Below, piece by piece: positions 31,038-53,864 of a DNA stretch of 64,000 bases. Origin of the DNA: a virus; IMG/VR virus record IMGVR_UViG_3300045988_107970, positions 32,001-96,000 of that record; one strand, written 5' to 3'. The notes under the pieces were generated by a model. The model worked only from the letters and a program-made list of their open reading frames with translations. It did no database searches and was not told the DNA's origin. A program made the position numbers and the translations under genes. How positions within the stretch are numbered: the first letter of the stretch is position 1; every line of letters begins with the position of its first letter.

Positions 31038-32234
31038 ATGGGAAAAGACCTTAAAGGCAAAGACTTGGGGCGCGGATACAGTCAACGAAAAGATAAACGT
31101 TTTGAAGCGCGGTGTATGATTAACGGTACAAAAATTTGCTTATACGATATGCATCTACCAACATTAAAGAAACGTTTTGAAGAAGAAAAAATTAAGATTC
31201 TAAGAGACGAAAAGAATATTAGACCAAACCTTACACTGTCTGAATGGTTTGAAGAGTGGTTTGAAAAATACAAAAAGCCAGCATTGAAGTCGGAAGTGTC
31301 TAAAAAGGCATATCATAGAAAAGTATCCAACACATACATTGCTGCAATGGGAGATAAAAAGATAGAGAATATATCTCATATGAATATGCAAGATACAACA
31401 AACGAATTACTTAGTAAATTCAAAGCAAGAACGCTGAGAGAAGCACTTGGCGTACTCAGAGAGTGTTTGGATATAGCGGTTATGAATCAAATCATTAAGT
31501 CTAACCCGTGTATTAATATAGCAATAAAAGACGAGAATGAAGCTGTTCAAGAACGTAGGGTTTTGAGTTCTCGTGAAATGAAAATGTTTTTAGATGAAAT
31601 AGAACATGAGTATTACAATGAAGCTTACCAAATCTTATTACTTACTGGCATGAGAATCGGTGAATTCAGCGGCCTTCAATGGCAGGATATAAACTGGCAA
31701 AACAAAACAATCAGAATACAAAGAAGTCTGAGCATTGGCTATGTTGACGGCAAGAAAATGGAATATCTCACAACGCCAAAGACGAGCAATAGCTACAGAA
31801 CTATTCCGTTCTTCGGGAACGTAGGAGAACTATTTAAAGATTGGAAGGTAAAACAAGACCAATACAAAGCAAAGCTTGGAAGTAGATGGAGATTGCGACC
31901 AGAGTTAGGCGATTTAGTCTTTACGACAACACTTGGTTCGCCAGTAACAAGATATGCATTGTCCCATAACATTGAAAAGGTATTGAAGAACATCAACGAA
32001 AAAGAAGAATATAATGCGGCAATAGAAGGCAGAGCGCCAGAGAAGATGGAACACATCTATCCACATGCGTTTAGACATACGTTTGCTACTAGGTGTTTTG
32101 AAAAGAAATTAGATCCAGTGTTTATACAAAGAATCATGGGGCATACTAGTTATGCTACCACTTTGAAATATACCCACTTGTTAGAGACAAAACTGAATGA
32201 AGAAGTGGTAAAAGCAGAAGACTTCCTATTATAA
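31038..32234 (+). CDS. int: tyrosine integrase with N-terminal arm-binding domain
   Basis: 398 aa. Catalytic boxes LLLTGMRIGE, HAFRHTFATR and GHTSYATTLKYTH. N-terminus GRGYSQRKDKRFEARCMINGTKI resembles the Tn916-Int arm-binding fold. Confidence 0.8.
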   Translation: MGKDLKGKDLGRGYSQRKDKRFEARCMINGTKICLYDMHLPTLKKRFEEEKIKILRDEKNIRPNLTLSEWFEEWFEKYKKPALKSEVSKKAYHRKVSNTYIAAMGDKKIENISHMNMQDTTNELLSKFKARTLREALGVLRECLDIAVMNQIIKSNPCINIAIKDENEAVQERRVLSSREMKMFLDEIEHEYYNEAYQILLLTGMRIGEFSGLQWQDINWQNKTIRIQRSLSIGYVDGKKMEYLTTPKTSNSYRTIPFFGNVGELFKDWKVKQDQYKAKLGSRWRLRPELGDLVFTTTLGSPVTRYALSHNIEKVLKNINEKEEYNAAIEGRAPEKMEHIYPHAFRHTFATRCFEKKLDPVFIQRIMGHTSYATTLKYTHLLETKLNEEVVKAEDFLL

Positions 32235-34557: not shown

Positions 34558-35379
34558 CTAATCAAGTAGCTGGATATATATTGTATTAGGTGTACCAGTT
34601 TCGGCAGCGACTTCAGAACCCCAGCTAATTCCAAGATTATTCAATGCTTCTGCGGCAGCAGTGGCACCAGTACCACCATGCTCAATAGCTAGAAAATCGC
34701 TTGTAATATCGTTTGCGCTATGCTTATGCGAACTTGTTGCAGCGCCAATATTAGCAGGCGTAATACCGAGTTTTGTTCTAGCATCAGCAGCAGTCTTGGC
34801 ACCAGTACCACCGCTTGATACTGGAACGACACCAGTATCATCTGCTACGCTAAACAACTTCTTGGCGGCTGCGAGAGTAGTACAACCAGTACCGCCATTT
34901 TCAATTGGCAAAGCGCCGTCTGTCTCGCCAAGACCAAGATTCTTTCTTGCTTCTGCAACGGTTGTGCCGCCAGTGCCACCAGAAGTCATGGGAACAGTAC
35001 CATATAAGCCATTGGCATTAGGCTGAACCATATCATCAACAATCCAATATTGACCGTCATATATAAGTCTTACTGGCTTGCCGTTTGTAAGGAAATCTTC
35101 ACTTGGCAATTGAATAGTAGATTTAGGAGAGCTAGAAATACGTATCCTAATATTCTTCGCGCCAAGACCATTGACATTTAATGTTGGCGCAGTAGTAGTA
35201 CTAGTAACATGTGGCACCATAACAAAGTTAGCACCAACAGAAAGAACTTCAATTGCCTTAACGGTAGCAGTATATGCAGCACCAGTGCCAGCACTTGTAA
35301 TACCTACAACGCGCTGTCTGCAAGCTTCGTCATACACCTCAAGACCGCCAAGGGATTTCATTATCTTATTTCCATCCAT
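34558..35379 (-). CDS. tail-fibre-like protein with four GGTG-x-T...NLG repeats
   Basis: Repeats GGTGGTTVAEARKNLGL, GGTGCTTLAAAKKLF, GGTGAKTAADARTKLGI and GGTGATAAAEALNNLGI. Confidence 0.55.
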   Translation of the reverse strand: MDGNKIMKSLGGLEVYDEACRQRVVGITSAGTGAAYTATVKAIEVLSVGANFVMVPHVTSTTTAPTLNVNGLGAKNIRIRISSSPKSTIQLPSEDFLTNGKPVRLIYDGQYWIVDDMVQPNANGLYGTVPMTSGGTGGTTVAEARKNLGLGETDGALPIENGGTGCTTLAAAKKLFSVADDTGVVPVSSGGTGAKTAADARTKLGITPANIGAATSSHKHSANDITSDFLAIEHGGTGATAAAEALNNLGISWGSEVAAETGTPNTIYIQLLD

Positions 35380-36703: not shown

Positions 36704-36818
36704 ACCTCCTTGGTCATTAGAATTTATAAATATGGCTAATATTGTAACATAAAATGTGTTTTCTAATATTCAAAATTGTAGAACTTTTAATTTATATATA
36801 AATAAATTTATATGCACC

Positions 36819-36882
36819 ATTGAAAAAATCCCACGCAAGTTATATACTCATTTCGAGTTAAATTGCGTGGGATTTTTTCAAT
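36819..36882. terminator. 20-bp perfect inverted repeat (A-run / stem / T-run) just upstream of the recombinase gene
   Basis: ATTGAAAAAATCCCACGCAA (36819..36838) pairs with TTGCGTGGGATTTTTTCAAT (36863..36882). The 24-nt loop contains AGTTATATAC, which resembles the early-gene motif. Confidence 0.55.
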
Positions 36883-36897
36883 GAAAGGACTTAAAGA

Positions 36898-37794
36898 ATG
36901 AAACTTATCGACATCTATGAACAGCATTATCTACCCGAGAAAACACAGAAGAGGGCGGCATCCACCATAGCTGGATACGACTCGTCTATGCGTCTTCATG
37001 TACTTACGCGATGGGGCGAGTGCGAGATTGAAGACATCTGCCCTGATGATTTGCAGGAGTGGGTAGACTCGTTTGAAAAAGCTGGTGCAGGAGAGAAAGC
37101 GTTTAAATGTATTCGCCAAATCATCCGTTGGTGGATTCGCAAGAAGCGTCTACATATTATCGATCCAACCGCATACATAGAAGTAAACCATCCTAAACCT
37201 TATCGTCCAGATGTTTTAGACGCACAAGAGGTATCAGAGATGCTTCGTGGCATGTGGGGTCATTGGGCTGAAGCTGTAACTATCTGTGCTGTAACTCTTG
37301 GTTTGCGCCGTGGTGAAGCTTGCGCTCTCGAATGGTCTGATATCAATCTTAAGACTGGCGAAGTGCGTATCAGCAAGTCGCGTCAATATGTGAACGGTCA
37401 AATCATCACAGTAAAAACTAAGACAGAGAAGTCTACTAGGTCTTGCTATCTACCTAAGTTTGCACGTCAGCGCTTAAAGCAAATTAAAGGACATTGGCTT
37501 CTTATCGGTGATGTCTCTCCCGATAAAGCAGCTCGTGCCATCAAATCACAGTGCAAGAAGATGGGCGTGCCATATGTATCTATGACCAACATGCGCCATA
37601 CATGGGCTACACTTGCAATTGAAGCAGGAGTTGGCATCGAAACCGTTGCCATGATGCTTGGTCATACAGAGATTAGCACAGCATATAATCACTATATCGT
37701 TCCTCGTAAAACAATCTGCCAAGAAGCTCAGGCGGCTGTCGAGAAGCTGATATTCGACAAAGCTAGGAAGTCTAAAATAAGGGCTATAAGCTAA
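36898..37794 (+). CDS. tyrosine recombinase (arm-less, Rci/Xer-like), putative shufflon invertase
   Basis: 298 aa. Catalytic motifs LGLRRGEACAL, MRHTWATLAIEAG and LGHTEISTAYNHY. Its stop codon lies 1 nt before recombination site S1. Confidence 0.8.
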   Translation: MKLIDIYEQHYLPEKTQKRAASTIAGYDSSMRLHVLTRWGECEIEDICPDDLQEWVDSFEKAGAGEKAFKCIRQIIRWWIRKKRLHIIDPTAYIEVNHPKPYRPDVLDAQEVSEMLRGMWGHWAEAVTICAVTLGLRRGEACALEWSDINLKTGEVRISKSRQYVNGQIITVKTKTEKSTRSCYLPKFARQRLKQIKGHWLLIGDVSPDKAARAIKSQCKKMGVPYVSMTNMRHTWATLAIEAGVGIETVAMMLGHTEISTAYNHYIVPRKTICQEAQAAVEKLIFDKARKSKIRAIS

Positions 37795-37795
37795 C

Positions 37796-37813
37796 TGGGG
37801 ATTCCGTATCCCA
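37796..37813 (+). repeat. recombination site S1 (core ATTCCGTATCCC at 37801..37812)
   Basis: TGGGGATTCCGTATCCCA, forward orientation, partly palindromic. Confidence 0.8.
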
Positions 37814-38105
37814 AGCTCCTATAGAAGTGGCAAAGACAAGCGGGTCTACTTCATACGAATCATTTAAAGTAGATTTACCTACAACAAAAATGGGTTGTTT
37901 AATATGTGTCTACAACAATAGACCGCTATGTTCTACAGTGTTTCCCATATCTCATTTTATTAAAAATAATACAAAGGCAAGTGATTGTGTAGACTGCTAT
38001 TATGTTTCTGATATAAGTCTACATGCAACTGCTTATTATCAAAATGGATATTTATATTTACAGTCTGGCAATAAAGCTATAAGGGCAACCTTTGTTGTCT
38101 TTTAG
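37800..38105 (+). other. silent C-terminal cassette C1 (101 aa, starts DSVSQ)
   Basis: The frame is open from the site core through track ORF 37827..38105. No RBS or ATG at the head. Confidence 0.75.
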
Positions 38106-38106
38106 C

Positions 38107-38124
38107 ATAGCATTCCGTATCCCG
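38107..38124 (+). repeat. recombination site S2 (core 38112..38123)
   Basis: ATAGCATTCCGTATCCCG, forward orientation. Confidence 0.8.
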
Positions 38125-38362
38125 TATTATAAAAACAAAACAAATAGATACAAATACAGACCCTAATGGATATTTTGAAACAGGGCTTAACGCAAAGCAG
38201 ATTCCAATAGGAATTGGCGGATTGTACAATGCAAGATATGCATTTCATACTGGAACTGATGCACAACAGGGCAGAACAATTCGTCTTATGGCATGGGACG
38301 GCAGCGTAGGTGGATATTCAAATAAAAAAATAAATGTTATCGTTTATTATATTGAAGTTTAA
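38111..38362 (+). other. silent C-terminal cassette C2 (83 aa, starts HSVSR)
   Basis: Checked codon by codon: open from the core to TAA 38360..38362. Not listed in the ORF track. Confidence 0.75.
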
Positions 38363-38366
38363 TAGT

Positions 38367-38384
38367 TTAGCATTCCGTATCCCA
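38367..38384 (+). repeat. recombination site S3 (core 38372..38383)
   Basis: TTAGCATTCCGTATCCCA, forward orientation. Confidence 0.8.
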
Positions 38385-38664
38385 ATGTAAACCGCAATAT
38401 AAAATTTATGTTGGGTCGAGGGTGATAAACACCGCACAATCTTGGGGTACGCTATTTACAAAAGACGAATTTATATCCTCTTTTGGACGCGGATTTGATA
38501 ATTCAAGAGACAGCATATCAGTTATGAATGGAGATGCGAAAGCCAACAATATTACCGTTTTGGGTATTTCGTATTATCCGCAAGACGGTAAGTTGGTTGT
38601 TGCATTATCAGCGAACGGCGGCGGTGCTTTTAGGATCAATTATATCGTAGTTCTTGCTGAGTAG
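38371..38664 (+). other. silent C-terminal cassette C3 (97 aa, starts HSVSQ)
   Basis: Open from the core through track ORF 38422..38664, in the same frame. Confidence 0.75.
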
Positions 38665-38698
38665 ACGTTATTGGCATACGCATATAAGAAATCATGCG

Positions 38699-39031
38699 CT
38701 AGTTGATATACCATGAACAAATACCCCTGTTAATAGCACCAGATGTCGAAGCAGCAACTTGAAACCCAATTGCTCCGTTTGGATGGACATAGCCATATGC
38801 GCATACGTTGAGTATGTAGCCATTGGCATTTGTCACACATGATGGCGAATAAATTGTATGATCTGGTCGAAGATTTTCTGGAATGACATGTTCTATTCCC
38901 CAATACTCATTTGTTGATTGAGAAACAGTCCATACGAGCATACACGTGTGTCCAACACGCCGAATATGAACGTATGAGGAACTACCCGGTGCTCCGTATA
39001 GCACAAGCGTATCGTCTTGGGATACGGAATA
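38699..39031 (-). other. silent C-terminal cassette C4 (110 aa, starts YSVSQ)
   Basis: Open from the core through track ORF 38699..39004. Contains an IPENLRP motif. Confidence 0.75.
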
Positions 39032-39035
39032 CTAA
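39018..39035 (-). repeat. recombination site S4 (core 39019..39030)
   Basis: The minus strand reads TTAGTATTCCGTATCCCA. Confidence 0.8.
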
Positions 39036-39358
39036 GCTGGAATATTTAATATCGTTGCAGCAGTAGCCCAAATGTATTCTCCGTTAGCATTTGCTTTTAT
39101 TATTACTTCTCCATTATTATTTATTATACAATATCTTTGATAACTATAATTAGTAGCAACATTATCAGCTATGGCAAACACTATTTGCGCCGTTGGTCTA
39201 CAACCTTGTGGTAATGTGCATAAAGTTGTATATTCTGATTTAACATAGCAGTTTACTATTGTGATAAATAAAATATTGTTTATTTTTGAATAACATATAT
39301 AACCAACATTATTGTCCTTAACGTATTTGAATTGTCCATTAGTTTGGGATACGGAATA
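39032..39358 (-). other. silent C-terminal cassette C5 (108 aa, starts YSVSQ)
   Basis: Checked codon by codon: open. Not listed in the ORF track. Its TAG stop abuts the first codon of C4. Contains LPQGCRP. Confidence 0.75.
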
Positions 39359-39362
39359 CTAA
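39345..39362 (-). repeat. recombination site S5 (core 39346..39357)
   Basis: The minus strand reads TTAGTATTCCGTATCCCA. Back-to-back with S6. Confidence 0.8.
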
Positions 39363-39365
39363 GCA

Positions 39366-39383
39366 TGGGAATTCCGTATCCCA
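39366..39383 (+). repeat. recombination site S6 (core 39371..39382)
   Basis: TGGGAATTCCGTATCCCA, forward orientation, partly palindromic. Confidence 0.8.
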
Positions 39384-39723
39384 AATAAGCAATAGAGTAT
39401 TGCTTTGGAGCGGAACGGCTGGCAGAGGTGTGAAGATTACGATTAACAACGACTATTCATTTAAAAATTTCAAATCATTTTATTGCCTTACAAGTATCGA
39501 TAAAACAATCGGATTGCCGCTTGTAAGAAACTCTGAAATACAACAAGACCAGTATTTACACGGCGTTACTGGATGGGATGATGGCACGACAACATATACG
39601 CTTATTGGACTAATTAGAATAAACACAGAGACAACTGCGACCATTACGTCTATATCAAAACACGATATAGGTGGCAATGGTGGAATTGCTGGCAATTTAC
39701 TTAAACTATGGGGATATTACTAA
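39370..39723 (+). other. silent C-terminal cassette C6 (117 aa, starts NSVSQ)
   Basis: Open from the core through track ORF 39400..39723. Confidence 0.75.
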
Positions 39724-39726
39724 TCG

Positions 39727-40074
39727 TTACTTCCACATGCCTTTGACGTTATATTCTATAAACCCCACAGTAGTAGTATTGTTATCTGTAATATCTTGTT
39801 TTAATACATATACTCCAGTATTTACCAAGCTGATAGAAGCACCAGTGCCAGACAATATGAAAATACCCTTTTGTCCAGAACTATATATTGCAGAAGCGCC
39901 TTTATATAATAAACTAGTCAAAGGGAATGGAAAATCAATAGCTGGGACGGTAACACTGCCAACACCGCTTACTTTTTTTCCTCCCCAAAATTCTGCAAGA
40001 CCACTTTTCCACTTGCGATAAAACCAGATTCCTGATTCTCCCTGCGCGACAATATAGTCGTGGGATACGGAATG
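39727..40074 (-). other. silent C-terminal cassette C7 (115 aa, starts HSVSH)
   Basis: Checked codon by codon: open from the core through track ORF 39727..39921. Confidence 0.75.
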
Positions 40075-40078
40075 CTAT
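40061..40078 (-). repeat. recombination site S7 (core 40062..40073)
   Basis: The minus strand reads ATAGCATTCCGTATCCCA. Confidence 0.8.
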
Positions 40079-40425
40079 TAAATTTTTAAATACGTACAGC
40101 AACATTTAATTTGACCTAGAACTGTGTTAGACGGTAGTACATATTGCTTGATTTTGATTTCTCCACTTGTAGTGGTTCTTATCCAAAAGCTAATTGGATA
40201 AGAAGTCGTAGTGAATCCCAATACTGGAAGTTCAATATCGTATGTGCTAGGCGCGAAAGCAGACGGCATTGTCGCAAACGTTACATTTACATTTTTATTT
40301 GCGCTATTTCCAGCAACAACATCTACCCACATGGTTACGCAATTTTCTGTGCGCGTGATTGCGCCAGTTTGTATAACCCAACCATTAGCTCCCTTGCACG
40401 TATCTTTCGTCAGGGATACGGAATG
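40078..40425 (-). other. silent C-terminal cassette C8 (115 aa, starts HSVSL)
   Basis: Checked codon by codon: open from the core through track ORF 40078..40332. Confidence 0.75.
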
Positions 40426-40429
40426 CTAT
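40412..40429 (-). repeat. recombination site S8 (core 40413..40424)
   Basis: The minus strand reads ATAGCATTCCGTATCCCT. Confidence 0.8.
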
Positions 40430-40878
40430 TCAACAACAAAACAAAGAGAGCCGCTAAAGTAACGAGAACTATCTTCCTCACACCACGTGTCCACCTTGCC
40501 CATGGCATCAACGAATATTTGTCCAATTTTACTTGTTCCTCTTATATATCCAAAACCAATAGTATCGGCATTTGGTCTATATCCTTCTGGCAATACGCCT
40601 TTGGTTCCCAATGATGGCATATCATTCATAAGCACACATACTAAATGTCCAATACGAGTATATGCGCAATATCTATTACTTGCAATGCTCCCTTGTAGAC
40701 ATGTAAACTTAGTTGGGGATACGGAATCCCACAACGTTGTAATTTCATTGGCGACATTGTATGTACCGCCGTTGCCCTTGGCATTGTTAATTGTCAGTGT
40801 GCCACCAACAGATAGATTTCCAGCGATAGAATCGCCAGTCTTATTTACATAAACATCATCAAGATTAACCCAACTCAT
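40426..40878 (-). CDS. small tail-fibre / receptor-binding-like protein: 50-aa constant N-terminus fused to cassette C9
   Basis: AAAGGAAG RBS and ATG at 40878. The N-terminus SWVNLDDVYVNKTGDSIAGNLSVGGTLTINN is a fibre-type motif. Site S9 sits at codons 50-54 and the variable part is 40426..40728. Confidence 0.75.
   Translation of the reverse strand: MSWVNLDDVYVNKTGDSIAGNLSVGGTLTINNAKGNGGTYNVANEITTLWDSVSPTKFTCLQGSIASNRYCAYTRIGHLVCVLMNDMPSLGTKGVLPEGYRPNADTIGFGYIRGTSKIGQIFVDAMGKVDTWCEEDSSRYFSGSLCFVVE
40714..40731 (-). repeat. recombination site S9, the expression-locus junction (core 40716..40727)
   Basis: The minus strand reads TGGGATTCCGTATCCCCA. Lies inside the expressed CDS and encodes W-D-S-V-S. 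Confidence 0.8.
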
Positions 40879-40925
40879 ATTTTTACTTCCTTTCATTCAA
40901 ACTTTGATATATAATCAATCAAGAT

Positions 40926-41285
40926 TTACTGTTCAGTAGCTATCCAATACAAGTTGGTTGTAGCATCGTTATCATTTCCTACTACCTGAACCTTGAAATT
41001 AGAAGACGTGATATTAAGAACTTTTGCCTTAGCCGTTTTACTATTTAGAAAAGTAGGTATGAGAATAACATTCGGCACATTGTTAAAAGCTACACTGAAA
41101 TCTATAACTTTAATCACATCTGCACCAGCCGTAGTCGTAGAGATAGTTTCACAGCCAGCCTGAACACGTTTCATCTTATTGTAAATACTTTTAAAATCTT
41201 TTATAAACGCAAGGAGACTATCGACTTCCTCGCCTGTATATTTAAGCTTGTAATCAACTTCACTTAATTTAACTTCGTCAGCCAA
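40926..41285 (-). CDS. hypothetical structural protein
   Basis: 119-aa ORF with GGGAGG RBS. Confidence 0.45.
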   Translation of the reverse strand: MADEVKLSEVDYKLKYTGEEVDSLLAFIKDFKSIYNKMKRVQAGCETISTTTAGADVIKVIDFSVAFNNVPNVILIPTFLNSKTAKAKVLNITSSNFKVQVVGNDNDATTNLYWIATEQ

Positions 41286-42997: not shown

Positions 42998-43567
42998 TTA
43001 ATTTGTCTGAATATAAAAAATTCCAGGCGTACTTGAAGTTGGTTCAGCAGTGCCAATGGTAATATCTGCTTTGGCATTCCACTTAGCACGCTCAGCGGCA
43101 GTGATGTGAATTGTAGTATTAGCAATATGAGCCTGAACTTTTTCTTTTGGCATCGCGCCGAGATTTGCAAGAGCTTCTGCGGCAGTAGTGGCACCAGTAC
43201 CACCCTTGGAGATCGGCACAGTGCCACTAGGTAAATTAGCAGCAGCAATTGTACCTGTAATTGCAGACGCATTGACAGAGGTAATGTCGGCAGCGGCATG
43301 TTTGTGTGAACTTGCAGCTTTCCCAGATAGCTTTGAATCGATTTCTGTTTCAGTATAATAACGGTCATCATGGGTATGCCCAGCGTTTGACTTGCCGTTT
43401 AGCTTTGAATCGATTTCTGTTTCAGTATAATAACGGTCATCATGGGTATGAGCGAAGTCTGTAATCTCAGCCTTGGTGTGTGTGTGGCCTGGCTTTGAGA
43501 ACTTTGCATTTGTCTTCTCAAGTAGATGTGTTAAACCAGCGCTGTCTAGAAACTTAGTTTCAGTCAT
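42998..43567 (-). CDS. tail-fibre-like protein with HTH-D-DRYYTETEIDSKL repeats
   Basis: A tandem 24-aa repeat and a KGGTGATTAAEALANLG motif shared with 34558..35379. Confidence 0.55.
   Translation of the reverse strand: MTETKFLDSAGLTHLLEKTNAKFSKPGHTHTKAEITDFAHTHDDRYYTETEIDSKLNGKSNAGHTHDDRYYTETEIDSKLSGKAASSHKHAAADITSVNASAITGTIAAANLPSGTVPISKGGTGATTAAEALANLGAMPKEKVQAHIANTTIHITAAERAKWNAKADITIGTAEPTSSTPGIFYIQTN
43329..43450 (-). repeat. 72-nt-period tandem coding repeat with 50 nt of perfect identity
   Basis: 43329..43378 is identical to 43401..43450. Confidence 0.85.
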
Positions 43568-43808: not shown

Positions 43809-45182
43809 TTAGGCAGTAACCTTAGCAGCGAAAAGACCGTCAATCTCTTCGTTAGTAATGGCAACAAAGCCATCGCCGACCTTGGTTTCAAGAGCGGAGA
43901 TGCGATCGCCATGAGAGCTTAAAGTAGTAGTATGACCACCAACAGTAGTGGTAAGACCAGCAATGTCGGTCTTGTTCTTATCAGCGGTAGCCTGAGCGTC
44001 AGTACCAGCCTTCTTAGCATCGGCGATCGCCACAGTAACCTTGCCGTCAGCAGCGATGGCGGCCTGAAGGTCATCAACATCCTTCTCGGCGGTAGTTACG
44101 CGAGTTGTGAGAGCGGTAACATCAGAAGCAGCAGCCTTAGAAGCCACAACATCCTTAAGCGCATCTATATCGCCCTGAGCCTTATCAGCAGCACTCTGAG
44201 CGGTGGTAATCTTACCATCGAGAGCGCCGTCTGCGGCAACACGAGCGTCAGTCTCGACCTTAACGGCGGCTTCAATCTGCTTTGCGACAGAACCATCGCC
44301 ATCGCCAAGTTTGGCTTCGACAGCCTTAACCCTCGTATCAAGACCGCCCTCGACACCAGCAGCGCGAGTCTTTTCAGCGTCAACAAGCTCCTTGATATAG
44401 GCTACAATAGTAGTAGCGGTGGCACCCTCGGGAATATCGCCAACCTTAGTCTTAAGAACAGAGATAGCTGTATTCATTGCAGAAGCATCGTCTGGGTGAT
44501 TCTGAATCCAAGCAGCAATTTCCTGAAGCGTGTTAAGACTATCCTTAGCATTTTCAGGAATGAGCTGCTTAGTAAGCTCCTCGTTGGCAATTGTACGAGC
44601 AGACTTACCAGTATCCTCGCCGATAAGCGTAGTAACCTTGCCCTCAACGGCATCAGCGCGACCAGAAAGGTTGGTGATGTTGCCCTCGGCAGCAGTAATC
44701 TTACCCTCGGCGGTGCCTACACGCTTTGTAAGAGCGGAAAGAGAAGCATCGGTTGCAATATCTGCGGTCTTCTCGTTTACGTAAGACACAACATCAGTGG
44801 AAGTTGCACCTTCGGGGATAGTGCCAACATAGGCCTTAAGGTTATCGGCAGCAGTCTGAGCAGCAGCGGCCTTAGCATCAGCAGCAGAAATCTTAGTCTC
44901 AAGACCAGCCTGAGCATCGGCAACAGCCTTAGCGACAGAACCCTCGGTCTTAGCATCGCCATTGAGCTTAGAGATAGCAGCGGTATTGGTCTTCACCTGA
45001 CCATTGGCAAGCTCCTGAACCTTAGTCTCGGCAGTGCCAGCGGCATCATAATTTCCAGCAAGACTATCTGCGTAGTCCTTAGCCGACTTAAGGGCAGCGG
45101 CATCCTTAGAATCAATTACAGCCTTAATCTTCTCGTCATAACGAGTAAGACCAGTTAGATCAATATACTTCTTTTCGGCCAT
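43809..45182 (-). CDS. Ala-rich coiled-coil fibre protein
   Basis: 457 aa with an N-terminal YIDLTGLTRYDEKIK fibre-type start. Internal duplication VGTIPEGATSTDVVSYVNE / VGDIPEGATATTIVAYIKE. The region is visibly more GC-rich than its surroundings. Confidence 0.6.
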   Translation of the reverse strand: MAEKKYIDLTGLTRYDEKIKAVIDSKDAAALKSAKDYADSLAGNYDAAGTAETKVQELANGQVKTNTAAISKLNGDAKTEGSVAKAVADAQAGLETKISAADAKAAAAQTAADNLKAYVGTIPEGATSTDVVSYVNEKTADIATDASLSALTKRVGTAEGKITAAEGNITNLSGRADAVEGKVTTLIGEDTGKSARTIANEELTKQLIPENAKDSLNTLQEIAAWIQNHPDDASAMNTAISVLKTKVGDIPEGATATTIVAYIKELVDAEKTRAAGVEGGLDTRVKAVEAKLGDGDGSVAKQIEAAVKVETDARVAADGALDGKITTAQSAADKAQGDIDALKDVVASKAAASDVTALTTRVTTAEKDVDDLQAAIAADGKVTVAIADAKKAGTDAQATADKNKTDIAGLTTTVGGHTTTLSSHGDRISALETKVGDGFVAITNEEIDGLFAAKVTA

Positions 45183-46653: not shown

Positions 46654-49600
46654 TTAGAAAGAAATCTCAATCAATACGCCGTTTTGTGTTCCAGCTGTAT
46701 TGAATCCATATAGATCGCCCTGCTCGTTTACCGTATAGATATAATTTGTATACGAAACGTTCTGTGAGCGAGTCCAGTAAGGCGTGTAATCGCCATCGAC
46801 AGCTGCACGCTTCCTAGCATCATTAGATGTCATATAAGAAATGATTTCACCCTCGTTAACAAATGGCTCTCCGCTGACTTCATATGAATTACTAAGCTCG
46901 ATAGCGGCAGGAATGGAGACGTAGCATTGAGATGCGCTAAGCTCTTTTGATCCATTGCCGATAGAAGAGTTAACCGTGACCTGCTTAATGAGAAGTTTAA
47001 TCTTTACAGGCAATGCTTCATAGAATCTTGTATTCAAGAAACTATTCAGGTCAGAGCTAGTCCAACCGCCAGCGTTGCTTCCGTTCTCATTAAATACGCG
47101 CTTTCTGTCAAGAAGGTGCTTTGCAAGCAAGCTGAACGTACAACGCTTAGACGGCTCATTGCTGAGATAGTATTTTTTAAAACTACATACCTCAAGCGCT
47201 ATGTTCTCATGCGGCCAACCAGCGAGCTTCTTGCAGACTGCATCGCCAAGGTCTTCGTACCAAATCTTGCTCCAATACACGTTGCCGACAGCATAGTTCT
47301 CATATGCGCCATCGTCAGCCTTAGAACAGCCGAATACAAGAGTGCTATCTATGATTGTTGACTTTGTTCTTTCAAGCTTTATAATATCGGGTTCGCCGCC
47401 ATTAAGGTTAGAATAATATACATAGATATTATTGTCACCTTTTTTGTGTCTAAGTACAACCATGTCACGGCTGCCAACAGAACCAGCACTAGTCGAAGAC
47501 GTACCCCAGCTCATCTTGATTCCGCTATTAGACCACAACTTAAATCCGTTTGAACCATTTGACTGGAAACATTGGGCAAGGACGCTTTTTTCAGATGTGC
47601 CGCTTAAGAATTTATAATCAATTGCCAATACGAAATCTTTGTCGGTATCAAAAAGCTTGATTCCTGTATCAACATAATTCTTGCCAGCAAAAACGGTTTT
47701 CTCAGAGATAACTGTTTTCGATGTGATATCATCATAATCAATATCATATCCCATATTAAACGAATATGCGTCACCAGCCTGAATGTTGGCACCAGAATTA
47801 TCAAGACCTAGTTTTGTAATGGCATAAACCTCAACAGGTCGCATATCCTTTAGCTCTTTGCCAGCAAGGGCAGTTGGAGTATATGTAAACGTATCGAATA
47901 TTGCATTTACGGTCTTATCTCCGTCAATAAAACCGCTCTTATCCCACCTATCAAACATATAATATTTATATGCGTTTTCCTCAAGGGTGTAAGTGGGAAT
48001 TGCACCAGTGTATTCAACATTCTCACCATACAGTCCAGTAGATTCCTGAAGCGTCACGCCACGCGAGACATATTTAATCGTATAGCGTCTCGTTGTCTCA
48101 CTATACGTTGCCTTGATTGTCCTGTCACTGAAGATGTTAGTCAACGGCAAATCCCATGCTTCAAACGTAAAGTCTGTGCTTACGGAGCTTGGCTTGGTGG
48201 GCGTGTCGATAGGATTGTCTACTCTCGTTATCGGGTCAACGGCATTGCCGCCCTTATCGACATACTGCGTATCAAGAACAGCATCATCATAGTTTACGAA
48301 CTTGACAATAAACTGTTCAACCATCGTATTGAATACAATCTCTAAATCAGGCCACGCTTCCTGATAGTCATAGAGCTGCTGCTGCTTTACAATCGGGACA
48401 TGAACCGTGCCAGATAACACAGCCACGTCAACGTTGTATCCGTTCTTGTCGATACCAGCCATCTTATAGATTCTATCGAGAAGGGATGTATCGTCAAGAG
48501 TCCAGTCAATACCGATGATTCTTGCCCTGCTGACATTTCTGGCTTTATCGAGTAGGTCTTTGATGTCTACCGTATTGCAGTTCTCTATGATGAGAGTGGA
48601 GATTGAATCGTACCCAGCAATAGAAAGATTTGTTAGATACATTAGATTCTTCATGTTGATAGACGTAAGAGTAGCAGGCAATTGAGCCAACCTAATGCTA
48701 CCACCGCTTGCAAATAGAACGCCCCTCAGCCCAGAACCAGAAGCATAAAGCTCCTCAAGATTCATGCACTTTGAGAAGTCCAAGCTGCTTATGAGATTGG
48801 GCGTATTCCTGATATCAAGTTTCTCAAGAAGCTTATTGTTTCCGATGACCAAGTTCGTCAAGAAGGTATTGGAGTATCCTTCTGTGGCATTACCGATAAT
48901 CAACTCTTTTAGCTTTTCAGCCTTGGAGAAGTCGTTGTCATGTATGTAGCAGGCAGATATATCGCCGACAGATTGAATTCTTGACGCACCGTAGATAAGA
49001 ACTGCGGTATCATCCATTGTATCATAGGGACACTTGATGTCGTACTGCTTGCCAGCCTTCGCCCTTACCTGAGTAGGCGTTGAGTTACCGAACATGACGG
49101 ACAGATACATATCCGAGAACGGCGTAAGGTGGAGCGTGTAGTTTGGCGCAACAACGGCATCCTTTGGCGTATTGCATCTAAACATAATCTGGTCAGATGT
49201 AGCTGTATTGCCGATGAACTTGGTAGCCATATACATCTCTTGATCGCGCTCAAACTGTCTACGCTGATACTTCTTCTTACCATTCATCATCTGTTCAAGG
49301 AATCGAGTGTTGCCGTCTTTATAAGGACGCTCATACTTGCGCACGTAGTCAACGCGCCAAAGCTCTTCGCACCACTCGTTCTGCTTCTCATCGAACTGAT
49401 TGATAAGAGAAGATGCACTCCAACAGTTTTTACTTTCGCGGCTTACATACATCTTCTGAAGGTCGGAACCCATTAGATCACGGACGCGACAGAAGAACAC
49501 TGACTCGGCTGCGTTAAACACATAGCCAGAAGATTGATCTCCCTCTGTGCGGTAGTCAGTATCTTCCTTGCCATAAGTCATTGTAAGCTCGCCGCTGTTG

Positions 49601-52600
49601 TTAATACCCAAAGCCGAGTCGTTATCATAGTCCCATAAATCAAAGCGGTATCCGTTATTGATTCCAGCAGCAGCATCATCAACCGTATAGTAAGCAGCTT
49701 TATCGCCAAGCGTTGTCGCTTCGGCTGTTGTGATATAATGCTTAGCCCAGTGCCAGAAAGTATTCTTACTTCTGTTGTCTATCATCGTATATCTAAGCGT
49801 GAATAGATAGAAGTATGTAGCAGAATCAACAACAAACCAATTCTTGAGATTGTTCTTGAATTCCTCATCTGTAGATGTAATTACGAACTCATAGAAGTCT
49901 CGCCAAATCTGTTTATTCTTCGTTCTGATTTTAGTCTTTTCCTCGCTGCTTGAAATAGCTTCGCCGTCTTTTGAGTCTCCGCAACAATCGTACCTAAACT
50001 CAAACGAACCATCCCAATCATTATACAAAGCGTCATATGCTGTATTGCCAGCAACCCATTCAGCTTTTGTGATAGGATATTTCATAGAACCATCAGGATT
50101 GGCAACGCCAGTTTGGAAGATGGAATTAGGCAATGTATTATCGCTAATCTCAACAGCGAATTCTTTCATATCGTCTGGGTCATACGCTCTTGTAACATCT
50201 GTCTTCTTAGAGTCACCGATGTTGCCCAAGGCGTAGAAATGCCATGAGGTATCTTGGAATTCCCTGTGTGTAGTTAAATCTGTGTCGCTTTCCTTAATGA
50301 ACACAACGCAGTTAACGAACTCCATGTCGTTCTTAATCTTAGAATCTCTACGAGTTGCAGGAGTAGCATATGGGATATAATCATTATATCTCTTCTGAAG
50401 ATATGCGTTGTTCACCATCTCGGAGCTTGCGATATTGACTTTGACGTTGAACCAGTTATTAGGCACAGAGGTTCTAGTAAGGGCAATCTTGCCAGAGCCG
50501 TCAGTAACAACACTACCATCGCCAAGCGTAAGCTTTGTAATATAATTTGGGTCTAGCTCAATCTTGCTACTCACCTGATGCTTGCCATCAAAACCAGCAA
50601 TAAGGTCGATGTTACGACCAGCTGCACCATACTCATTTGATGTAGTGCCTTGTCCAGAATGATAGCAATTCTCAAACTTCCAGTTGTCAAGAACTGCGTC
50701 ACCATTCTTATAGATGCATTCGAAAGATGTATTGGCTACAAAGTCCTTCTTGTTATTGGTGAAATGCGGAGCTTCAATCTTGATAACACGCATATTAGGA
50801 CAAGCATTGGCAACAGACTCAGGAGTCAAAAGCTTGTTCTCATCATAAATCTGGTTACGTGTATAGCGAGCAATCATCTCGGTTGCAGTACGTGCATCCG
50901 CAATAAAATTAGACAAAATTGCCGAGCTTGTAAGGCTTGTATTATATGCCTTCATACGATAAATCAAAACATCGCAATCAGGAGAGCCAATGGTAATCGG
51001 TACGGGAGAGTCCTGAGTAAATGAATAATCGCCTGTATAGCTCATAGGACGGCACGGCGTACCATCTTCATAAGACATGACAATGGGAATGTCGGTATCC
51101 TTATTGATATTGAACTCCCACTCGATAACATCTTCCTCGCTATACGGGATATACAAAGACTTCGCACTTGATTTAATGTATGCTTCATGTACATTCATCT
51201 GAAGGCCGACATTAGACGTAGTACCAGACTGACAAGTCAAGAACGTAGCATTACTCTTCGCAACGTTAGTTGTCTTGAAGATTAGCTTAAATTCCTTGCC
51301 ATTCTTCTTGGCATCATCTGCAAAAAGATTGTAAGAGATAGTTGCCGTAGTTCCAGCCTTAACGCCAAAGTATTGATCGCCATTATCGTCAATCTGATAT
51401 CCGCCATTAACCCAGTCGAAATTATCAGATACGGTCATAGCGACATCGCCATCAGACCACAATCTATCGGTGTCGTTATTAGACTTACCAACAGGATTGA
51501 AATCAAATGCAAGACCAGCAACAACAGGCTCAACATCAATATCGAGCTTTTCAACATTTACCGTTAAGGTCTTAACAGTATCACGACAAGTAATAGTAAG
51601 TGTATGTGCGCCAATGTCAGAAGACTTAAACTGCCATGTCTGAGTATTATTATCAATTGTCAGTGTTGAGACGGTTTTTCCGTCAACGGCTAGAGTTACT
51701 TGTGGAGTTTCAGTAGATGGGTCGTATACAGTATACACAATGTTTGTTGTGTCATACTGTTTAGCCGTAAACTTCTGCTTAACACATCCAATTACAGGCT
51801 TGTCACTTGTTGAATCATACCAAATAATATCTTTAACAATATGATTGGATTCAATTGCCTTACCGTTGACTTCTGCCGTCATGTACACTTCGAGTAAATG
51901 AGCGCCATGTGTCTGAGCAGGAAGGTCATACGCCAAGGGGACACCAGAAACAGCAGTATCTACAGTTCCGATTTCATTACCGTCTAAAATAAAATGAACC
52001 TTCTTTTGAATAGCGCCATAAGGAGTGTAATCAAAAGAAACTTTTCCAATGGGGTATGTAAAGCTGTCATTAAAAGAAGATTCAAGCCTGACATCAACCC
52101 TTTGAACAGTCCAAGTCTTAGTTACAAGACTGCCAGCGTCATCAACAATACTAAGATTGACCTTGTGTGTACCAACTGTAATATGGTCGGTAATATCAAA
52201 AGAGTTTTCACCAGACGCAGCGGTATTCGTAGCAACAATAGAACCGTCAACTTTCCATGTCGCAGTACCATCGCCGCCAACATCGCCAGAAGAGTCGGTT
52301 CTAGAGAAGTTGTACTTGATAATAATCTTATCGTCTAACGTTGCCACAACGGGGGTTGTTGTGATATATGTAATCTTCAGGATGCTGCTGGTTCCGCCAC
52401 CGCCACCGCCGCCTTGAATCTTGAACTGAGCTTTTGCTTCTTTTTTTTCGTCCGACTTGCCCTCGTTTTGAATTTCCCAAAGGGTATAAGTATGCTCTTC
52501 ATCGTATGTGGCATCATATGTTAAACGAGGAGAAGTATCAAGACCATTAATGGTTTCTTCAAATTTAGCAACCTTATCGCCAAGCTTGGTCACATTTTCC

Positions 52601-53787
52601 TTATTTGCATTTGCGGTAGATGTCACAGAAGCAACATTGGTGTTGGTCGTATTAAGACTTGCTTTTGTCGCAAACTTCTCGTCTGCTTCTGTTTTAGCGT
52701 CATTAATCTTTTTGTCAACACCAGCTGTGTATTGCGTAGTCCATTCCTCGGTTGGGTCGCTTGTGATTTGAATTGCTTTCATCACAGTTTCGCCATTGTA
52801 GAACGTCATCTTACTGCCATCGTATGTGACATTGAACTTAGCAAGACCATCTAAGTTAGCAATTTGCTGCTTCACTTCATCAAGTTGGTCAGAGATATCA
52901 ATATTTTTAACAATATTGTCAACCTGAGTCTTGGTATAATAAGAAGATAACGCGGTGGCTACTTTATCATTCACAGCAGAAGAGACAGTTCCTTCAAGCT
53001 GAGTCTTTGCGGTATCAACAACCTGCTGTGCTTTGTTTGCAGATGCTTCTGCTTTATCAGCGTAATCAGAGATACCGTCAACAGTTGTCTTTGCTTCCTG
53101 CGCATAGCGCTGAGCTTCTGCAACCTTCTCATTTACCTGAGTCATAAAGCTGGTAATCCATGTGTTATCAGGCTCAATGGCTCCGTTGCCAGCAAGAGAC
53201 TTAAGTACGCTCAGCTGGTTGTTCGGCTTTGTCTTCCAAACATACTCATCGCCCTTTGAGTTTACGCCAGATGCAATAATCTCAAACTCAAGAGTGCCTT
53301 CAACGGCAGTTGCATTCTTACCAACAAGCCAACCGAATCTAATATACTCATCATTATAATATACATTTACAACGTTGCTACGGTCTTCATATCCGTCTTT
53401 ATTGACATAATGAATAATAATGGTTGTGTTAAGAAGGTCAAAGCCATCATATCTACGTGGCATCTTAAATGGGATATATTGCGAATTCGATTCTTGCGTA
53501 AGGTTAATTTGCTTCTTATCAATTAAGACATTCTTTACATCATCAACATTTGAAATGTTCTCATCTGAATACTCTTCGTAATACAGGTAATTACTGCTGC
53601 GAGTCCAACCTTCTAACGAATTAGAGTTCACAGCGACAGCGGATTCATCATCAAGAGATGTAAGAGAGATATCATCATATACTGGCACATCATCATCAAG
53701 AGACATAAGAGAGATATTATTATCCATCATTCTTGCATTGTTATTTTCTTTAGCTTTATTTAACGAATCTTTAAAAGATAAACCCAT
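46654..53787 (-). CDS. giant (2377 aa) fibre/adhesin-like virion protein with LRR and InlB B-repeat modules
   Basis: AGGAGG RBS and ATG 53787. An LRR-like block (LKELIIGN...LEKLDIRNTPNL...LEELYASGSGL...LTNLSIAGYDSISTL). Two List-Bact repeats (FIVKFVNYDD..., YTIKYVSRGV...FDRWD). Ig-like beta-rich segments. C-terminal YWTRS-type domain. Confidence 0.6.
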   Translation of the reverse strand: MGLSFKDSLNKAKENNNARMMDNNISLMSLDDDVPVYDDISLTSLDDESAVAVNSNSLEGWTRSSNYLYYEEYSDENISNVDDVKNVLIDKKQINLTQESNSQYIPFKMPRRYDGFDLLNTTIIIHYVNKDGYEDRSNVVNVYYNDEYIRFGWLVGKNATAVEGTLEFEIIASGVNSKGDEYVWKTKPNNQLSVLKSLAGNGAIEPDNTWITSFMTQVNEKVAEAQRYAQEAKTTVDGISDYADKAEASANKAQQVVDTAKTQLEGTVSSAVNDKVATALSSYYTKTQVDNIVKNIDISDQLDEVKQQIANLDGLAKFNVTYDGSKMTFYNGETVMKAIQITSDPTEEWTTQYTAGVDKKINDAKTEADEKFATKASLNTTNTNVASVTSTANANKENVTKLGDKVAKFEETINGLDTSPRLTYDATYDEEHTYTLWEIQNEGKSDEKKEAKAQFKIQGGGGGGGTSSILKITYITTTPVVATLDDKIIIKYNFSRTDSSGDVGGDGTATWKVDGSIVATNTAASGENSFDITDHITVGTHKVNLSIVDDAGSLVTKTWTVQRVDVRLESSFNDSFTYPIGKVSFDYTPYGAIQKKVHFILDGNEIGTVDTAVSGVPLAYDLPAQTHGAHLLEVYMTAEVNGKAIESNHIVKDIIWYDSTSDKPVIGCVKQKFTAKQYDTTNIVYTVYDPSTETPQVTLAVDGKTVSTLTIDNNTQTWQFKSSDIGAHTLTITCRDTVKTLTVNVEKLDIDVEPVVAGLAFDFNPVGKSNNDTDRLWSDGDVAMTVSDNFDWVNGGYQIDDNGDQYFGVKAGTTATISYNLFADDAKKNGKEFKLIFKTTNVAKSNATFLTCQSGTTSNVGLQMNVHEAYIKSSAKSLYIPYSEEDVIEWEFNINKDTDIPIVMSYEDGTPCRPMSYTGDYSFTQDSPVPITIGSPDCDVLIYRMKAYNTSLTSSAILSNFIADARTATEMIARYTRNQIYDENKLLTPESVANACPNMRVIKIEAPHFTNNKKDFVANTSFECIYKNGDAVLDNWKFENCYHSGQGTTSNEYGAAGRNIDLIAGFDGKHQVSSKIELDPNYITKLTLGDGSVVTDGSGKIALTRTSVPNNWFNVKVNIASSEMVNNAYLQKRYNDYIPYATPATRRDSKIKNDMEFVNCVVFIKESDTDLTTHREFQDTSWHFYALGNIGDSKKTDVTRAYDPDDMKEFAVEISDNTLPNSIFQTGVANPDGSMKYPITKAEWVAGNTAYDALYNDWDGSFEFRYDCCGDSKDGEAISSSEEKTKIRTKNKQIWRDFYEFVITSTDEEFKNNLKNWFVVDSATYFYLFTLRYTMIDNRSKNTFWHWAKHYITTAEATTLGDKAAYYTVDDAAAGINNGYRFDLWDYDNDSALGINNSGELTMTYGKEDTDYRTEGDQSSGYVFNAAESVFFCRVRDLMGSDLQKMYVSRESKNCWSASSLINQFDEKQNEWCEELWRVDYVRKYERPYKDGNTRFLEQMMNGKKKYQRRQFERDQEMYMATKFIGNTATSDQIMFRCNTPKDAVVAPNYTLHLTPFSDMYLSVMFGNSTPTQVRAKAGKQYDIKCPYDTMDDTAVLIYGASRIQSVGDISACYIHDNDFSKAEKLKELIIGNATEGYSNTFLTNLVIGNNKLLEKLDIRNTPNLISSLDFSKCMNLEELYASGSGLRGVLFASGGSIRLAQLPATLTSINMKNLMYLTNLSIAGYDSISTLIIENCNTVDIKDLLDKARNVSRARIIGIDWTLDDTSLLDRIYKMAGIDKNGYNVDVAVLSGTVHVPIVKQQQLYDYQEAWPDLEIVFNTMVEQFIVKFVNYDDAVLDTQYVDKGGNAVDPITRVDNPIDTPTKPSSVSTDFTFEAWDLPLTNIFSDRTIKATYSETTRRYTIKYVSRGVTLQESTGLYGENVEYTGAIPTYTLEENAYKYYMFDRWDKSGFIDGDKTVNAIFDTFTYTPTALAGKELKDMRPVEVYAITKLGLDNSGANIQAGDAYSFNMGYDIDYDDITSKTVISEKTVFAGKNYVDTGIKLFDTDKDFVLAIDYKFLSGTSEKSVLAQCFQSNGSNGFKLWSNSGIKMSWGTSSTSAGSVGSRDMVVLRHKKGDNNIYVYYSNLNGGEPDIIKLERTKSTIIDSTLVFGCSKADDGAYENYAVGNVYWSKIWYEDLGDAVCKKLAGWPHENIALEVCSFKKYYLSNEPSKRCTFSLLAKHLLDRKRVFNENGSNAGGWTSSDLNSFLNTRFYEALPVKIKLLIKQVTVNSSIGNGSKELSASQCYVSIPAAIELSNSYEVSGEPFVNEGEIISYMTSNDARKRAAVDGDYTPYWTRSQNVSYTNYIYTVNEQGDLYGFNTAGTQNGVLIEISF

Positions 53788-53864
53788 TGTCATCCTCCTT
53801 TCAAACAATAATAAAAAAGAGGATGACAAATCACCCTCATATTATTCAATAAATATAAGTGCAT

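Follow-up and report, generated by a model that had tools for sequence, protein, structure and literature searches.

The window analysed here is a stretch of 64,000 nucleotides (positions 32,001 to 96,000 of the IMG/VR virus record IMGVR_UViG_3300045988_107970), and all coordinates below are those of this window unless another contig is named. It comes from a human-gut phage whose genome measures roughly 130 kb and has a GC content of 39%. At 36898-40878, a gene for a tyrosine recombinase is followed by nine copies of a 12-nt repeat, each of which heads an open segment (cassette), and by a short constant gene part on the minus strand that reads into only one of these cassettes. We consider the locus most likely to be a shufflon of the Rin type, that is, a multiple-inversion switch for the receptor-binding protein (RBP) of the phage. 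The evidence is first given for the sites, cassettes and proteins of the locus itself and then for rearrangement among its relatives.

Sites, cassettes and proteins of the array

The 12-mer ATTCCGTATCCC was found exactly nine times in the 64-kb window, all copies lying within 37801-40727 and none elsewhere, and the count remained nine when one mismatch was allowed. By comparison, 0.10 copies were expected in shuffled sequence, and none of 100 shuffles reached nine. Four copies are forward (S1, 37801..37812; S2, 38112..38123; S3, 38372..38383; and S6, 39371..39382) and five are reverse (S4, 39019..39030; S5, 39346..39357; S7, 40062..40073; S8, 40413..40424; and S9, the expression site, 40716..40727), which is the exact count given in the initial annotation. 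The left flank is TAGC at S2, S3, S7 and S8 and TAGT at S4 and S5; at S4 it coincides with the stop codon of cassette C5, and the TAG of S8 is the stop codon of the expressed gene. GGG-type left flanks were found at S1 (CTGGGG) and S6 (ATGGGA). S5 and S6 stand head to head, separated by a spacer of 13 bp (39358..39370) in which the two left flanks lie back to back. With its flanks, S9 reads TGGGAT-TCCGT-ATCCCC, a near-perfect palindrome.

The relatives of the window (contigs with the prefix L below) include 19 IMG/VR contigs found through the recombinase and 20 human-gut metagenome contigs found through the expression junction. To obtain a consensus, 190 sites were pooled from the window and related contigs. 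The extended consensus was T-R-G-N-A-TTCCGTA-TCCC-A. To the right of the core only TCCC(A) is conserved, followed by cassette-specific sequence. The left arm at silent sites is TAG (72%) or GGG/TGG, whereas at the expression site it is always (C/T)GGGATTCCGTATCCC, which gives the palindrome GGGAT-TCCGT-ATCCC. Judged by these alignments, the site is asymmetric: its centre and right arm are conserved, the left arm is degenerate at silent positions, and the invariant TTCCGTA is probably the region of strand exchange. Of 100 tandem junctions, 65 have a TAG at -4 to -2 that actually terminates the cassette before it; thus, each cassette unit carries its own stop inside the next site. Among the relatives, 15 of 20 head-to-head site pairs had a spacer of 13 bp.

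Every core, read as x-S-V-S, opens a stop-free frame of 83-117 codons (9/9), as had been annotated. Such a frame of at least 83 codons had a probability of 0.0033 per site in a composition-matched shuffle, and together the nine frames tile 97.8% of 37800-40728. On the plus strand lie C1 (37800..38105, 101 codons), C2 (38111..38362, 83 codons), C3 (38371..38664, 97 codons) and C6 (39370..39723, 117 codons); on the minus strand lie C4 (38699..39031, 110 codons), C5 (39032..39358, 108 codons), C7 (39727..40074, 115 codons), C8 (40078..40425, 115 codons) and C9 (40426..40728, 100 codons). Only C9, the head domain of the RBP, is at the expression site; the other eight are silent in this arrangement and have no start at their head. 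The nine sites divide the locus into ten segments, five of which hold a single cassette (C1, C2, C5, C8 and C9) and two a convergent pair (C3/C4 and C6/C7); one is the S5-S6 spacer. The idea that all nine cassettes are recognizable paralogues was dropped, since BLASTP among them linked only C4, C5 and C9, and these weakly. A Pfam search of the nine cassettes with E values up to 1 gave nothing credible. Comparison with orthologues in the relatives gave ratios of nonsynonymous to synonymous substitution (dN/dS) of 0.07-0.57 at dS up to about 1, with values of 0.08-0.14 for C1, whose orthologues occur in L003, L008, L011, L022 and others. These ratios indicate that the cassettes are under purifying selection. 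Considering that the cassettes are silent in most assemblies, it would follow that they are expressed often enough for selection to act.

S9 alone of the nine sites is preceded by a ribosome-binding site (AAAGGAAG, 40886..40893, minus strand, 7 nt upstream of the ATG at 40878, as read from the sequence), an ATG and a 50-residue constant N-terminal part (40729..40878, minus strand), in agreement with the initial annotation. The same start Met is shared by 52 homologous 150-residue proteins in the protein database. In an AlphaFold model of the expressed 150-residue protein (47 sequences, mean predicted local distance difference test score (pLDDT) 82.5), an eight-stranded head spanning residues 55-150 is predicted with confidence (pLDDT about 95), and a helix at residues 42-53 passes through the junction codons, which read D-S-V-S at S9 and lie at the end of this predicted neck helix. 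Foldseek against the PDB matched the head to RBPs from three lactococcal phages, TP901-1, p2 and bIL170, and from the Listeria phage PSA (probability 1.0, E about 1e-4, template-modelling score 0.63-0.67 against head-only chains). The matched entries include TP901-1 ORF49 and PSA gp15, as well as crystal structures of chimeric TP901-1/p2 proteins of head-exchange design. A PHROGs search of the expressed protein gave no match. According to the model, the target of the switch is a small baseplate RBP of the TP901-1/p2 type whose head is exchanged at the neck, which describes it better than the tail-fibre-like protein named in the initial annotation. A protein of 197 residues (P0060) carries a C9-like head on a different, longer helical N-terminus (about 97 residues) with the junction A-L-R-D-S-V-T, so that head cassettes are shared between different constant parts.

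The recombinase gene (36898..37794, plus strand) encodes a Rin-like, arm-less (Xer-like) enzyme of 298 residues with profile matches only to the catalytic domain PF00589 and the SAM-like core-binding domain PF14659. It aligns over its full length with Xer-type enzymes, so that its description as an arm-less tyrosine recombinase stands. The predicted catalytic residues (R137, K173/K175, R233, H256 and Y266) are retained in relatives as distant as 36% identity, and the protein ends about 30 residues past the catalytic Tyr. Its stop codon ends at 37794, six nucleotides (CTGGGG) before the 12-mer of S1 and not one nucleotide as had been reported. A promoter-like site, TTGAAA-17-TATACT (36820..36848, plus strand), lies about 50 nt upstream of the start, matches the consensus at 10 of 12 positions and may drive the gene. 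The GC content of the gene is 45%, compared with 39% in its surroundings. At 90% identity, the recombinase belongs to a cluster of 849 member sequences, and 323 clusters are related. Among annotated phages, the closest homologues come from Bifidobacterium phage PMBT6 (36%, E 7e-48) and from Siphoviridae ctl617 (38%, E 7e-50), and the next-best annotated phage hits had E values of about 1e-16. In both PMBT6 and ctl617 the recombinase gene adjoins an array of TAGC(A/T)TTCCGTAACCC sites, and ctl617 also carries a site of the expression type, TGGGATTCCGTAACC. More closely related enzymes (70-72% identical) were found next to the identical core TTCCGTATCCC in contigs of Collinsella and Enteroscipio (Coriobacteriia, 60-64% GC). 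This core and a 70-72% identical recombinase are present in L044 and L045 (Collinsella/Enteroscipio) and in the high-GC IMG/VR contigs L018 and L020, all with a GC content more than 20 points above that of the window.

Rearrangement among related contigs and rival explanations

About 40 related human-gut contigs carry the core 3-13 times each and together hold about 70 cassette families. The same families recur among them in other order and orientation. Convergent pairs were found both ways (>C6<C7 and >C7<C6, >C3<C4 and >C4<C3, >x6<x1 and >x1<x6), the C6-C7 block being inverted in L003, L006, L010 and L039. BLAST homology blocks between genomes start and stop at cores. L015 and L023, for example, share four cassette blocks (five families) that are 99.0-100% identical, three of which are inverted and all of which are bounded by cores. 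At the expression site, the junction GAAATTACAACGTTG[C/T]GGGATTCCGTATCC is conserved and followed by at least 10 different cassette families. Several cassettes that are silent in the window occupy this position elsewhere: C3 in L003, L024, L025 and L028, C4 in L039, C6 in L010, L031, L032, L034 and L035, and C7 in L026. Consistently, proteins are on record in which this N-terminus is joined to C3-, C4- and C8-like heads (P0092 and P0093, P0070, and P0094, respectively). In none of 39 loci was a cassette family duplicated, as is expected under conservative recombination. Contig ends provide further evidence: nine contigs of relatives terminate no more than 33 nt from a core, six of them no more than 6 nt away, and one contig of 66,978 nt stops exactly at the expression core. 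Since a repeat of 12 nt is shorter than the k-mers of assemblers, such ends indicate alternative junctions within those samples. In a different solution from the single expression site, L021 (7638-8386) and L038 (8202-8950) have two complete RBP genes in tandem, each with its own constant N-terminus and core; their heads are C9-like and x0, and only one further cassette is silent.

On this basis, we put the probability of a Rin-type shufflon that switches the RBP of the phage by multiple inversions at about 85%. The arm-less 298-residue recombinase would act on the nine copies of the asymmetric site. S9 is the sole site inside the expressed gene, between the 50-residue constant N-terminus and the roughly 100-residue head. 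Conservative recombination between S9 and a forward site would invert the intervening DNA and join a new, promoterless head in frame to the constant part, whereas inversions at other opposed site pairs would re-orient the remaining cassettes. The initial annotation had supposed that successive inversions reach the reverse-oriented cassettes as well, and a breadth-first search over inversions between opposed sites bears this out: 107,520 arrangements are reachable, and each of the nine heads could be expressed after at most two inversions. The outcome would be a population of virions, each bearing one of nine alternative heads, which might serve as bet-hedging on host surface variants and would presumably alter host range. 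Every available test supports the mechanism as originally proposed, with one recombinase, nine sites, a constant N-terminus and cassettes swapped by inversions.

It should be noted that a number of findings weigh against this reading, most of them concerning the strain itself. Exact-protein contig look-up yielded only one arrangement: the three contigs on record that are identical to the window stem from two or three assemblies, include an ENA contig of 130,377 nt and one from Logan, and show no alternative. The eight predicted alternative fusion proteins were absent, by exact look-up, from a collection of about 15 billion proteins, and the strain-specific junction allele (TGG) was absent from IMG/VR. 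No contig pair was found with identical flanks in different arrangements; contigs with flanks at least 99% identical had either the same arrangement or an entirely different cassette set. For this exact strain, we infer switching from the sequence and did not see it in contigs or in the protein collection. In addition, the first His of the usual HxxR is not conserved in the recombinase (T/N-x-x-R). The single arrangement, the absence of the alternative fusions and the replaced His would all suit a once-active Rin-type shufflon whose arrangement is now fixed in this strain; very low expression or activity of the recombinase, or strong selection for C9, could be the cause, and the silent cassettes could form a reservoir on an evolutionary timescale. 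Such a fossil or locked switch appears quite improbable to us. The recombinase open reading frame (ORF) is intact, R137, R233, H256 and Y266 are conserved at 70-99% identity and the 849-member cluster argues in the same direction, while the His replacement is common to all family members, Bifidobacterium-type enzymes included. All eight silent cassettes are likewise intact, with low dN/dS. Moreover, assemblers report the majority arrangement only, which makes the absence of variants from contigs weak evidence.

Other points against the Rin-type reading concern the relatives and the cassettes. Rearranged contig pairs differ by 1-8% in their flanks, which leaves room for a contribution from homologous or intermolecular recombination. 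Four or five sites point the same way; the nine sites form 20 forward-reverse pairs and 16 direct pairs. A tyrosine recombinase under no constraint would be expected to remove cassettes between direct sites as well, and the sequence offers no explanation of how this is prevented. The relatives do differ in cassette number (3 to 13). The model of a C3-type fusion (P0092) reached a pLDDT of 72.6 with no significant match in the PDB and weak hits to tailspike C-terminal domains; thus, an RBP-head nature or a common fold is not established for every cassette. Another reading is that cassettes are exchanged between genomes of co-infecting phages or resident prophages rather than, or besides, being inverted within one, and that most of the diversity among relatives would have this origin. 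The exchange could occur by homologous recombination in the conserved flanks or by Rin-catalysed exchange at the conserved cores, in the manner of integrons or recombinase-mediated cassette exchange. The array of L009 (6904-9461) lies between a left flank with 97.5% and a right flank with 99.1-99.6% identity to the window, and none of its eight cassettes belongs to the nine families of the window, so the whole array appears to have been replaced between the two. L009 and L015, on the other hand, have cassettes that are 99.0-99.7% identical on right flanks that are only 92-95% identical. The occurrence of the same core in elements of 39% and of 60-64% GC, the 46% protein identity of a cassette of ctl617 (a 60% GC phage) to a low-GC phage family, the C9-like head behind a different N-terminus in P0060 and the variable cassette number point the same way. 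However, exchange between genomes leaves unexplained the orientation flips of convergent pairs, in which both breakpoints lie at cores, and the contigs that break exactly at cores, and neither an excised circular cassette nor an intermolecular product was observed. We therefore regard it as unlikely in place of inversion; it is compatible with a Rin-type shufflon and not an alternative to it. A bolder idea, which is tentative and on the whole doubtful but deserves mention, is that the core serves as a shared docking site at which Rin-type recombinases exchange head cassettes between phage genomes in an integron-like manner. If so, there would be a community-wide gut pool of heads (at least 70 families in 40 contigs) that crosses phage lineages, GC content (39% versus 60-64%) and probably host phyla, from Coriobacteriia and Bifidobacterium prophages to the 130-kb phage, which resembles phages of Clostridia. 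The observations just listed on exchange between genomes do not speak against this idea, and neither does the identical core found with a 70% identical recombinase in high-GC Coriobacteriia contigs.

A reading without any site-specific recombination, in which the cores are mere coding motifs (x-S-V-S) of paralogous small proteins or the cassettes are gene-conversion donors like those of pilS and vlsE, is hardly tenable. It is true that the core is in the coding frame in every copy and that a position at the end of a helix could be structurally constrained. Yet the third-codon positions of the core are unchanged across the 190 sites, although adjacent cassette bodies reach a dS of 0.3-1.0. The only common core variant is also telling. 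In L014 (6916-10046) and L017 (6915-9969), whose recombinases are 84-85% identical to that of the window, all 10 sites each read TTCCATATCCC instead of TTCCGTATCCC, a G to A change in the putative overlap that is non-synonymous (S-V-S to S-I-S). A concerted change of all ten sites is what a requirement for identical overlaps would produce. Conservation further extends to the non-coding left flanks and the 13-bp head-to-head spacers, eight of nine cassettes lack a start at their head, and a dedicated recombinase is always adjacent. Gene conversion, for its part, would leave a silent donor copy, but no family is duplicated within a locus; variation of the pilE/pilS or vlsE type was rejected on this ground, no cassette family occurring twice in any of the 39 loci. 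Taken together, these points effectively refute a reading without site-specific recombination.

Comparison with known systems

The Rin shufflon was reported for the Bifidobacterium breve and B. longum prophages Bb423phi1, Bl157phi1 and Bl30698phi1 (Mavrich et al., 2018; PMC6109161). In these prophages, an arm-less XerD-like tyrosine invertase is encoded beside the array, and the five Rv cassettes (95-100 residues) are each preceded by an 11-bp asymmetric core named rix (TTCCCTAACCC); the constant part, Rc, has 168 residues and similarity to the TP901-1 RBP (PMC6109161). Both the comparison of prophages and sequencing reads showed inversions at rix sites, and the authors asked how deletion between direct rix sites is avoided (PMC6109161). 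The same system has been reported in Eggerthella lenta clade-1 prophages, together with H-lectin proteins (PMC8778435). In the literature searched, the Rin shufflon appears only in prophages of these two actinobacterial genera and is still called putative (PMC6109161, PMC8778435). The initial annotation had considered a tyrosine-recombinase shufflon on a phage RBP to be unusual and possibly new. This suggestion fails, because Rin shares the architecture, its crossover core is almost the same and its inversions are documented in reads (PMC6109161).

The correspondence with Rin is close. The core TTCCGTATCCC matches rix at 9 of 11 positions; the core of PMBT6 and ctl617, TTCCGTAACCC, is identical at 10 of 11 and has the same TAGC left flank, and a search with the pattern TTCCNTANCCC picks up the sites of these two phages as well as those of every related locus. 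In the literature on PMBT6, we found no statement on whether its array had been described. As in Rin, the arm-less XerD-like recombinase next to the array is a separate enzyme from the integrase of the phage, a single constant N-terminal part with a start is combined with promoterless C-terminal cassettes of about 100 residues, and one rix-type site falls within the gene while a second follows its stop codon immediately. The expressed head has the TP901-1-type RBP fold (with the caveat that a C3-type head had no significant match), and inversions between related genomes have their breakpoints in the repeats (L015/L023, 99-100% identity). An H-type lectin protein is encoded next door, as in the Eggerthella prophages. 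Several differences were also observed. The recombinase is only 36-38% identical to the Bifidobacterium-phage enzymes, those compared being from PMBT6 and ctl617. The carrier is roughly 130 kb in size with 39% GC, in contrast with roughly 40-kb high-GC actinobacterial prophages; there are 9 cassettes here and up to 13 in relatives versus 5; the constant part has 50 residues versus 168; and at least one cassette type (C3) has no detectable TP901-1-like fold. Finally, inversion has been seen at the level of reads for Rin, whereas the present evidence comes from contigs and proteins.

The locus is thus a larger member of the Rin kind in a new type of phage, and the mechanism given in the initial annotation is correct in outline. 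What is new is the setting, a roughly 130-kb phage of 39% GC with a Clostridia-phage-like polymerase, as well as the 9-13 cassettes instead of 5, the very short constant part and the heterogeneous heads. It indicates that the Rin recombinase-site pair operates in a very different and very common human-gut phage, with a repertoire roughly twice that of the published Rin loci. The related contigs provide a natural data set on the site, with a logo drawn from 190 sites and two genomes whose cores changed in concert, and offer material on how an arm-less tyrosine recombinase avoids deletion between direct repeats. A testable idea in this respect is that the contrast between GGG (strong) and TAG (weak) left arms bears on the avoidance of deletion. 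About 70 interchangeable heads at one junction (D-S-V-S after the neck helix) amount to a design rule for retargeting RBPs. Shufflon loci are also known to break up phage assemblies and to give rise to mis-called small ORFs in viromes.

Other inversion systems share parts of this logic. The R64/IncI1 pilV shufflon (Rci, sfx) likewise uses a tyrosine recombinase and multiple inversions to swap the C-terminal segments of one adhesin-like protein, and its sites are asymmetric too, the spacer and one arm being conserved and the other arm not. Its target is the tip adhesin of a conjugative pilus encoded on a plasmid, whereas here it is a phage RBP. Rci is extended at its C-terminus, a feature implicated in limiting the reaction to inversion, in contrast with the minimal 298-residue Xer-like enzyme of the window. 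The 19-bp sfx core, part of a 31-bp site, appears unrelated in sequence to the 12-nt core. A shufflon of the R64/Rci type was ruled out on these three grounds (the enzyme, the target and the core). The switches of Mu (Gin), P1 (Cin), e14 (Pin) and p15B (Min) are similar in that a phage-encoded inversion exchanges the receptor-recognizing C-terminal part of a tail protein, and Min also has several crossover sites with many combinations. These enzymes belong to the serine (resolvase/invertase) family, act at unrelated sites, need a Fis-dependent enhancer and serve the long tail fibres of enterobacterial myoviruses. The sole recombinase adjacent to the array belongs to PF00589 and no resolvase-type ORF lies next to it, so a serine-invertase switch was rejected. 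A diversity-generating retroelement was considered as a mechanism and rejected as well. A parallel among cellular systems is found in Mycoplasma, where the M. pulmonis vsa/HvsR, M. bovis vsp and M. agalactiae vpma/Xer1 loci have one expression site with a promoter and 5' end, many silent 5'-truncated cassettes after a short recombination box and an adjacent Xer-like recombinase. The logic is the same as in the window, but the Mycoplasma genes are for cellular lipoproteins and not a phage RBP, and both sites and proteins are unrelated.

Carrier phage and neighbouring genes

Among the gene products of the phage are DnaE, a RecD2-like helicase, NrdD, a cytosine methylase with an intein, and an integrase. 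For DnaE, the best matches (39-43%) are the enzymes of Clostridium phage c-st, Geobacillus phage E3 and the 131-kb C. difficile phage phiCD211. A megablast search of 36800-41000 against about 50,000 GenBank phages gave no match, so none of these isolates is closely related at the DNA level. In a genome scan, the recombinase was found only in Coriobacteriia contigs (58-72% identity, 60-67% GC). The clues to the host conflict: the high-GC Coriobacteriia kin of the recombinase disagree with the GC content of the window, and DnaE points to phages of Firmicutes. A second tyrosine recombinase (31038-32234, plus strand; 398 residues with an extra N-terminal region) lies between two divergent gene modules and is probably the lysogeny integrase, which suggests that the phage is temperate.

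Near the array are genes for the H-type lectin protein, a Listeria-Bacteroides-repeat protein and fibre-like proteins. Two of the latter flank the shufflon (42998-43567 and 34558-35379, both on the minus strand) and contain short repeats, HTHDDRYYTETEIDSKL occurring twice and G-G-T-G-A-x-T-A-A-E-A-x-x-N-L-G several times; with them, the phage has several tail appendages besides the switchable one. The C5 cytosine DNA methylase (12661-14685, plus strand; 674 residues) has Hint and intein-splicing domains within residues about 77-434, which suggests that it is interrupted by an intein. An ORF of 2391 residues (46654-53829, minus strand) ends in DUF6273 and matches two PHROG families of unknown function. 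Finally, an Ala-rich ORF of 457 residues (43809-45182, minus strand) is accompanied by a 408-codon open frame on the opposite strand (43932-45158), which is probably a compositional artefact.

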